From: Okamejei kenojei
Lineage: Eukaryota
Length of the DNA: 64,000 nt
Assembly (NCBI GenBank): GCA_035221665.1
Contig: CM069133.1
Span: forward strand, 126,604,001-126,668,000
Reading direction: 5' to 3'
Numbering within the stretch: the stretch's first letter is position 1; each line of letters opens with the position of its first letter. The translations under genes and the position numbers were made by a program. The notes under the pieces are model-generated. The model saw nothing but the letters and a program-made list of their open reading frames with translations, had not been told where the DNA came from and searched no databases. Below, piece after piece: positions 59,281 through 61,234 of this stretch.

Positions 59281-60217
59281 CGTTATTTTTCACTGTTCAT
59301 ATGCATTCATGGAAAGACAAAAATACACAAAAATCTATGTCTGTTGAAATAAAAAAAACTTGGAAAAAACATGATCAGTGAAAAGGTCTGACATTACTAT
59401 CACCTATTATGTTAAATGTTAGCTGCTCAAACACACATTGTTTTATACTGGCTGAAGGATTTTTCTTGGAAACATGCCATAATGCTGTCAAGACTTCTGG
59501 GATTAGCTTCTACATTGAGTTGCAAACTAATAAACAGTAATTTAGTATCAAGCTGATTGCTTGTAAATTTAGCTTAATAGACTATGAGGGAAACAATCAC
59601 TCCAGCTTTATATAGTAGCGGGAAATTGTGCTCTGCTCAAGGAAGGCTTATATTGTCTAACAATGAAAAAACTGTAAGCTTCCCTGCCACAATGGCAATT
59701 CAATTTCTTCCTCACATTCCCTAATTCCCATTCAGTTTCTAACCTGTCATTTAATACATTCAAACATTTATTTCCAAGCATCCTTGACTCAAAATTTGAT
59801 ACAAATTCAGAATAGAGCAAACTCTGCAGGAAAATAAGTGAAAATGTATGGAAATACTCAGACAGAATCTGTGAAGTGAGAAACCGAGTTAACATTTCAT
59901 GTTAATAATCTTCCTTTGGCACAGGGAAATGTTAGAAGTTGACAAGATATGGAAAAATTGGGAAAGGGAGAATTGATTAAGAAGAAAGGCCTCTGATGCA
60001 ATGAATGCAGGAAGGGATGATAGTGAAAAGCAAAAGCTGTTGGCAATACCACTGCCTTCAATATGTTTTCCCTTCTCCACAACAAGGGATACCGGTTTAA
60101 TGTTGCCAACAGGTCCTTTGATCCTGTATGCTAATTTACATAGAAACATAGAAAATAGGTGCAGGAGGAGGCCATTTGGCCCTTCGAGCCATCGCCGCCA
60201 TTCTTGTGATCATGGCT

Positions 60218-60356
60218 TCTTCTTCTTCTTTCGTGTGGCGTGCACAGCCTAAAGTTGTTGGACAACTTGTTCTATTTGATCTTCCGTTTGTGCACGTCGA
60301 GTTGATCGCATTAGTCGAAACAGGGCGGCCACGCGAAGGTTGCAATCTTCCACCCC
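60218..60356 (-). mobile_element. 139-bp non-autonomous retroposon (Vingi/Ingi- or RTE-like end) with (GAA)n tail
   Basis: 12-bp TSD GTGATCATGGCT at 60206-60217 and 60357-60368; minus strand ends cgccacacgaaagaagaagaaga. Confidence 0.85.
60304..60356 (-). ncRNA. Candidate minimal HDV/CPEB3-like self-cleaving ribozyme
   Basis: GGGGTGG-AA-GATTGCA-ACC-TTCGCGT-GG-CCGCCCT-G-TTTCGA-CTAA-TGCGATC: 7-bp P1 with G1-U wobble, 7-bp P2, L3 one base from CPEB3 UUCACGU, J4/2 CTAA; P3 lacks one base. Confidence 0.7.
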
Positions 60357-61234
60357 GTGATCATGGCTGATCGTCCGCTATCAATAACCCGTGCCTGCCT
60401 TCTCCCCATATCCCTTGACTCCACTAGCCCCTAGAGCTCTATCCAACTCAATTTCAACTCGATCCAACTAATTTCTTGCATATCTGTGCTTAACCTTTCA
60501 CCCACACCCCTTCCCTTCCCTCCATCACTCATCTAAGAATTGTGATAGGGTTCTCCATTGTGCTGCTGCCTCCTTCCTATTCCTCTATATTTCAGCCTTC
60601 TCAATAGATTATTTTCTTCCGGAAGCTCGGGTCTACTCTTCCACTTCCATCAATAACTGCCCGATTTTCCACGGGAATTTTTTTGGTAAACTCTGAAGAA
60701 GCATCTCTTGTGTTTAACTTGCACCCTTCAAGGGCCCACATGCCCTTTCAGGATGGAACAGTATTTTTTAAAAGACATTTTCAAGTACTGTATTAATTTC
60801 CCTCCACTCAGTCTGCAACAATGATCCTGTTGGCACTCTCCCAGTATATCCAACTCTTCTTCCTTTGACCTTCTAATCAAGCTTAAGGAATGTTTTCCTA
60901 CTCTTCTAATATCTCACTTTATAGTTTTGTGGATGGTATTAATTTTGTCAATTTAATATACCGAGGATTGCCACGACTTTTTGTTTTTGTTACAGATTTC
61001 TATCTTCCACAATAATTCTTTTTTAATTTCAGATAATAATCTTATTGTCTAATTTCAGCTAATTATTCTTATATTCTCTTTTACATCTCCTTTAGATTGA
61101 CATCTTGTTATTTTTTGATTGTCCCATTGTCACCCACCCGCTCCTCCCCATTCATTTTAACTTAGCACTGTCAATCCTTTCTTCACATATTATCTCCTGA
61201 AATCCAGTAGATCCTAGGTATATGCAATTAGAGT

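Follow-up and report, generated by a model that had tools for sequence, protein, structure and literature searches.

Vingi, a LINE clade with a compact single ORF that carries APE and RT and lacks RNase H (PMC13708176), is one of four clades known to make bipartite derivatives (PMC5786205), and in the accessible text of that work (Kojima 2018, PMC5786205) it stands among the bipartite-derivative clades and not among the ribozyme-bearing ones, with CPEB3 unmentioned. Activity of HDV-type ribozymes has precedent in the heads of NARTc/SIDER and R2 (PMC4035085, PMC6765202) and in P4-less ribozymes (PMC10879173), and the published HDV-like descriptor gives J4/2 as CRRA and P1.1 as two C-G pairs (PMC6326823). 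The origin of the CPEB3 ribozyme, which is said not to occur outside mammals, was not traced below mammals for lack of outgroups (Bendixsen 2021, PMC8233481). Related literature includes PMC13635239, PMC3391268, PMC10919898, PMC3277949 and PMC8256844.

Here, we analysed a 64,000-nucleotide stretch of DNA from Okamejei kenojei (the window), in which a first-pass annotation had described a discrete minus-strand insert with a perfect 12-bp TSD and a GAA tail inside a CR1 tail. The identical repeats are present at 60206-60217 and 60357-60368, the insert lies in a repeat fragment of likely CR1 identity at 60138-60449, and every helix named in that annotation is in its place, P3 being short by one base. 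The features are as follows.

60218..60356, minus strand: retroposon insert, 139 bp, read from sequence
60357..60368, no strand: TSD copy 5' of the element; predicted cleavage site between 60357 and 60356
60206..60217, no strand: TSD copy behind the tail; its first two bases prolong the GAA repeat
60304..60356, minus strand: HDV/CPEB3-type ribozyme fold without a P4 helix, predicted from sequence
60356-60350 pairing with 60328-60322, minus strand: P1
60347-60341 pairing with 60310-60304, minus strand: P2
60340-60338 pairing with 60330-60329, minus strand: P3, one base lost
60337-60331, minus strand: L3
60321, minus strand: P1.1 partner G
60319-60315, minus strand: five-base loop in the P4 position
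60314-60311, minus strand: J4/2, with the predicted catalytic C at 60314
60279..60303, minus strand: remainder of the LINE 5' untranslated region part; LINE and mini element diverge after about base 78
60266..60278, minus strand: junction of about 13 bases, mostly repeating the preceding bases and absent from the LINE copies read (by eye)
60232..60265, minus strand: LINE 3' end part, with the last codons, the stop codon (60251-60249) and a short 3' untranslated region
60218..60231, minus strand: GAA-repeat tail
60138..60449, minus strand: repeat that received the insertion, a fragment from the 3' tail of an abundant LINE, likely CR1

The 3' part in this list is drawn from LINE copies that match element bases 92/99-139, and in energy folding its bases 60246-60239 can pair with 60296-60289. 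Longer copies of the host repeat have ends resembling CR1 ORF2 plus tail; we take the repeat to be CR1, a clade label that comes from a C-terminal motif. Across the compared region (59900-60700), a contig from a related organism covers both flanks without the whole host repeat fragment, suggesting that the insertions of host repeat and element both postdate the split from that organism.

The insert belongs to a large family. Exact genome-wide matches number 7,073 for a 24-mer from the ribozyme core and 8,543 for one from the 3' end, with 0 for the reversed control of each, and of 608 candidates in a DNA search of the genome, 40 copies were scored, at 96-100%. Overlap of the two 24-mer samples (12/30 and 13/30) gives a crude family size of about 18-20 thousand copies, among them copies 97-99% alike. 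Position 1 is reached by all 30 copies sampled with the core 24-mer (the first 30 places on contig 1, two of which are one duplicated insertion), and position 1-2 by 29 of the 30 sampled with the 3' 24-mer (the first 30 places found), the last being cut by about 17 bases; the flanks of the sampled copies are unrelated to each other. For a table of variation we used 99 non-redundant near-full-length copies, prefiltered for length, of which 88 have G at position 1 and 69 have a TSD, against 1.15 in shuffled pairings. Copies therefore start at G1, as had been anticipated, and these fixed 5' ends and TSDs rule out a 3' fragment of a longer element, just as family-wide conservation and covariation rule out chance resemblance. 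The base before G1 is T in 47 of the 99 copies, usually within the TSD, a possible target preference. Family copies also occur in contigs of four runs (four studies, four organisms), which, together with the flank-spanning contig that lacks the host fragment, suggests that the family is common to related species and that the window insertion came later.

Alignment of the 99 copies places the window copy among the damaged members of the family. The base missing from its P3 is U in 79 copies, so the family restores P3 as predicted, and the one-base deletion form is found at 7 places genome-wide, a number that points to decay in the window copy and rules out a subfamily with a 2-bp P3. The loss of one P3 base after insertion has probably left the window copy with a weak or dead ribozyme. 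Core bases are otherwise well kept across the 99 copies (G1 in 88, the L3 bases in 88-98, the catalytic C in 96), and in place of P4 five bases separate the P1.1 dinucleotide from the catalytic C. J4/2 is CUAA in 67 copies and in the LINE and CGAA in 26 copies, the CUAA majority departing from the published CRRA descriptor, and P1.1 has a single C-G pair, an arrangement also known from cellular ribozymes whose second pair is non-standard. Subfamilies differ in J1/2, at the variable position of L3, at the second position of J4/2 and at places in P1 and P2 where wobble pairing is kept, with one exception, in which the outer P3 pair is broken: 451 exact genome matches carry a G or C there, one such haplotype is common to 8 of the 99 copies, and these variants still start at G1. 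No pair is changed on both sides within the 99 copies.

Automated searches with the insert itself were less informative. The comparison with the Rfam HDV and CPEB3 models that the first-pass annotation had proposed returned no match for the insert at E <= 10, and an Rfam scan of 14 loci gave no HDV-type match; HDV-like ribozymes are divergent in sequence, and a match to these models does not define them. Shuffled sequences fold as stably as the insert does in its nested minimum-energy form (z 0.21 and -0.28), as is to be expected of a pseudoknot that lies beyond the folding program. In a predicted competing hairpin the catalytic C would be bound to the P1.1 G; the descriptor guards against misfolds of this type, in which the catalytic C is trapped (PMC6326823).

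The annotation had also called for a long element sharing both ends, and a partner LINE of this kind is present in the genome, with its frames broken. A pattern demanding the 3' end and excluding the upstream ribozyme returned mostly damaged mini copies, but also five places where a different upstream sequence reads as an ORF C-terminus. Walking upstream led to a 3.1-kb copy with its own TSD (L216), in which the head is followed by a short leader, a start codon about 105 bases in, endonuclease, RT and a zinc-knuckle-like end in one ORF, and then the tail. Its RT matches Pfam RVT_1 at E 9e-29 and its endonuclease pieces reach only E 0.19 and 0.011, weak values that we attribute to the frame breaks. 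LINE and mini element have in common the first ~78 and the last ~40-45 bases plus the GAA tail, and in two longer deletion forms (L153, ~430 bp, and L221) this head is followed by sequence from the LINE interior. The 5' ends of 16 LINE or deletion copies lie no more than 13 bases from G1, four of them at G1 itself, the ends having been taken from local alignments, which can under-call them, and these 16 copies have no common sequence upstream of G1. Partner copies are about 10% apart, with none intact among the 150 scored places, and the closest intact relative in the protein collection is 75% identical over 1019 aa and has Pfam APE and RT domains and no Pfam RNase H domain. Many LINE copies (L170, L183, L192, L196, L218, L237, L340, L350 and L353) have an inverted 5' part, including the head, beside a truncated body, as in twin priming.

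The partner thus has a compact single ORF with APE and RT, traits that RTE elements also have, and its terminal motifs are, we presume, those of Vingi. The Vingi-type partner suggested in the first-pass annotation fits this architecture, and by its sequence the LINE is likely a member of the Vingi clade, an assignment between Vingi and RTE/Ingi that leans on these motifs and on the likeness of sister-family heads to printed Vingi 5' ends, described below. A route to the partner through PF14529 was abandoned because its 30 best loci belong to another LINE family without a ribozyme head. That family (L091-L120) is abundant and fairly young, with the top PF14529 scores, one open frame of 1276 aa (L102) and no ribozyme head within the loci scanned. 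As for the mini element, it had been called SINE-like, which holds in that it is non-autonomous and copies the ends of a LINE; it is an internally deleted LINE derivative and not a SINE proper. Like other bipartite derivatives, it has both LINE ends with the middle deleted, no RNA-gene head, TSDs and a partner-type tail.

Heads of more distant relatives provide a further view of the fold. Among 77 metagenome loci related to the partner, 17 have DNA upstream of the ORF start, and the strict HDV descriptor finds 0/17 of these. A relaxed score, applied after this failure and with shuffle and reverse-strand controls, gives two clear folds (23.7 and 23.2) and one borderline (17.7), where our own head scores 24.4, the best of 204 shuffles 17.1 and the best reverse strand 17.6. 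One of the clear-fold heads has six decayed or cut relatives (by eye), and two full-looking metagenome relatives (L252, L256) have no fold by the relaxed score. The metagenome heads L266:54-131 and L316:280-359 have a P4 with an internal motif (by eye), which we take to be loop-E-like; P4 variants bearing such a motif have been described. Three further metagenome relatives (L273, L279, L281; 26-29% identity) have a cysteine-rich coding region ahead of the endonuclease and are probably of another clade.

Searching the genome with the Rfam CPEB3 model placed 30 of 59 scored places above the cut-off (best 66.8 bits), and these places are the heads of at least four more repeat families (B, C, D and E). 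In families B and D the head is followed by a LINE ORF related to the partner, the RT of family B being 42-46% identical to the same 1019-aa relative, and family C, which is linked to no ORF here, has a P4 stem resembling that of CPEB3. Loci of families B-D are L336-L355, L362 and L366-L373, L351 being a ~95-bp deletion form of B. Family E is a second P4-less mini element of ~165 bp with a GAA tail and TSDs (2,579 first-look candidates). In its majority form P1 is 6 bp long and, here too, begins at the TSD; no partner LINE for it was found among the loci examined. Its loci are L356-L365 and L374-L403, for example G000:C13:72840037-72840200. The P4 gap is five bases in the mini-element family and in E, and 15-33 bases in five other families.

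Because automatic alignment misplaced the 3' half of P4-less against P4-bearing heads, we parsed the heads by coordinates. Taking one natural head from each of seven families, we find pairing in 108 of 112 helix cells, at 16 pairs per head with the G1 pair left out; the latter is G-U in six heads and G-C in one. Each of the six other families differs from the mini-element family by 6-9 two-sided pair changes, and the invariant core across families is U-Y-C-N-C-G, a G after P1, and C-N-A in J4/2. A gap-free alignment of the two P4-less families is 94.4% paired, compared with 73.0 +/- 2.5 when shuffled (0/500) and at most 51% in slid controls, and has a two-sided change at 10 of 18 pairs; it represents two lineages, and its six E rows belong to a less common form whose P1 contains four C. 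The P1/P2 covariation anticipated by the first-pass annotation is therefore found between families and hardly within the mini-element family. Judged by this covariation, the HDV-type nested double pseudoknot of P1, P2, P3 and P1.1 is real in the family, and the two-sided helix changes among families show that selection has long acted on the RNA structure.

As a blind test we took a very young LINE family that is related to the partner and had been picked up through its protein alone. Its 5' end reads as a textbook HDV fold with a two-pair P1.1 and CGAA, and 6 of 20 loci score 21-24, the best of 204 shuffles reaching 17.1 under a near-identical score; ten loci reach the 5' end, four of them damaged or cut there. 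Copies are about 99% alike and have the same terminal 16 bases as the partner, and one might speculate that this family moved the youngest mini copies. Its loci are L404-L408 and L414-L425, for example G000:C313:148511-151831.

The reading we favour, and consider probable, is that the insert is one damaged member of a numerous non-autonomous retroposon family, in which the first ~78 bases of a 3.1-kb LINE, likely a Vingi, are joined to its last ~45, and which begins with a 54-base P4-less HDV-type fold predicted to free the element RNA from read-through transcripts for the LINE protein to copy. It starts from the observed family size, G1 boundary, TSDs, partner with both ends, intermediate deletion forms and covariation of the fold. 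We infer the remainder: that the RNA is cleaved, that it comes from read-through transcripts, that the LINE protein recognises the 3' end, that priming occurs at the GAA tail and that the LINE is a Vingi. By analogy with R2 and L1Tc (PMC6765202, PMC4035085), a copy lying in a host transcript would fold and cut itself 5' of G1, so that all freed RNAs begin at the same base. Next, the LINE protein would bind the common 3' end and nick DNA, priming would occur at the GAA tail (which the first two bases of the window TSD prolong), and about 140 bases would be copied to the end, leaving a TSD. Amplification of copies with a broken outer P3 pair, the CUAA majority and the hairpin predicted to trap the catalytic C argue against a strict need for cleavage. 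The lack of an Rfam HDV or CPEB3 match for this family, the small share of LINE heads that start exactly at G1 (4 of 16), the want of an intact partner among the 150 scored places beside mini copies 97-99% alike, and the few folds among the 17 metagenome relatives also speak against the favoured reading.

These same P3-mismatch variants, amplified with intact 5' ends, and the want of two-sided change inside the mini-element family, would be accommodated if the head were an internal polymerase II promoter like Pr77 of L1Tc, with transcription starting at G1 and the ribozyme secondary or a relic in the mini element. Pr77 is promoter and ribozyme at once (PMC4035085), and the two readings can both hold; as the whole explanation we regard a promoter as unlikely, since the two-sided helix changes among families point to long-term selection on an RNA fold and the 5' boundary is G1 in families with a 7-bp and with a 6-bp P1 alike. 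The near-absence of 5' truncation and the tolerance of a weak P3 would also fit a fold kept as a stable 5' module, protecting against 5' decay or serving as a handle for completing reverse transcription, with cleavage of little importance, and the R2 ribozyme fold is described as giving template RNAs cap-like protection (PMC13708176). Across families, however, the catalytic C and the core bases stay invariant though the helices have turned over, as catalysis demands, and we consider such a module quite improbable. An ordinary polymerase III SINE with only a resemblance to a ribozyme is barely credible: one loose B-box-like 9-mer lies directly behind the fold, but a head derived from tRNA, 5S, 7SL or snRNA and an A box were looked for in the element and neither was found, as the first-pass annotation had also judged, which rules out a tRNA SINE, while the head being the 5' end of the LINE itself and the covariation of the fold among heads largely refute any polymerase III SINE.

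The heads of the sister families also bear on the CPEB3 ribozyme. The 5' ends printed for Vingi-2_Gav, Vingi-4_Crp, Vingi-1_BF and a Vingi-2_SPur segment (PMC5786205) can be read as HDV-type folds. By eye, and leaving out the P4 loop, the head of family B agrees with Vingi-1_BF at 54 of 57 positions; likewise, with the P4 interior set aside, gharial Vingi-2_Gav agrees with the Rfam CPEB3 consensus at 52 of 54. The 7-bp P4 stem of CPEB3 recurs unchanged in the alligator SINE2-1_AMi (PMC5786205 supplement). The gharial, crocodile, lancelet and sea urchin Vingi 5' ends and SINE2-1_AMi, as printed there, nearly duplicate the CPEB3 ribozyme. Helices change freely from one head to another, so near-identity of this order argues for descent and not convergence, and the presence of Vingi fossils in the human genome (PMC5753468), set against a CPEB3 ribozyme confined to mammals, points to a direction from Vingi to CPEB3.

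The sequences thus suggest that the CPEB3 ribozyme is a domesticated Vingi head. In its full form we find it likely, if a shade less so than our reading of the insert, that the Vingi clade carries 5' HDV-type ribozymes, that two mini elements here have amplified to thousands on a phage-like P4-less ribozyme, and that the single-copy mammalian CPEB3 ribozyme is a domesticated head of a Vingi, or of a Vingi-derived SINE, and has present-day relatives in crocodilians, lancelet, sea urchin and this genome. Webb 2009 reportedly described lancelet, sea urchin and lamprey ribozymes and suggested a retrotransposon route of spread in general terms; these ribozymes may well be Vingi heads.

If this holds, Vingi would be a further LINE clade whose RNA is processed by HDV-type ribozymes, the minimal P4-less ribozyme would gain a eukaryotic home and job, and Vingi heads would be the missing outgroups for the origin of the CPEB3 ribozyme. 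The thousands of natural variants provide a test of which ribozyme bases matter. Anolis Vingi-1 is under development for gene insertion, its native 5' UTR being retained, and in the accessible text of a 2026 review ribozymes are given only for R2 (PMC13708176); a cleaving head would bear on template design for such a tool. In the literature searched, which took in few subscription papers, no ribozyme is placed in Vingi, neither the mini-element family nor a Vingi origin of CPEB3 is described, and no minimal P4-less fold is reported in an animal, although Repbase, Dfam or patents may already contain the families. The element design is already known from NARTc, RIME, SIDER and R2 SIDE; carriage by a putative Vingi and the predicted minimal fold in an animal retroposon would be new.

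NARTc, RIME, NARTco and SIDER of trypanosomatids (L1Tc/ingi clade) have the same design as the mini element, which differs in residing in an animal, in a partner without RNase H, in its GAA tail, in its 54-base P4-less fold and in its some 18-20 thousand copies. R2 SIDE of Drosophila likewise arise by internal deletion and keep the HDV-like ribozyme of their parent (PMC3414825). R2 inserts at a specific site in rDNA and uses a different endonuclease, whereas the family described here is dispersed. Deletion forms of Vingi-1_EE (Kojima 2011 as cited in PMC5786205) have the same bipartite structure of 5' and 3' ends and a single-ORF LINE without RNase H. The minimal ribozymes drz-Mtgn and theta are P4-less like the mini element, with the catalytic C first in J4/2, and are active in vitro, but nearly 99% of minimal ribozymes are confined to tailed phages and tied to tRNA genes (PMC10879173), whereas here they would be the heads of two animal retroposon families. 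The CPEB3 ribozyme (RF00622), in turn, is single-copy and intronic and has a P4, and the mini-element family, which has no match to its model, differs from it in the sequence of P1-P3; the two have in common the L3 heptamer of the family majority, a P1.1 with one C-G pair and a G1-U pair.
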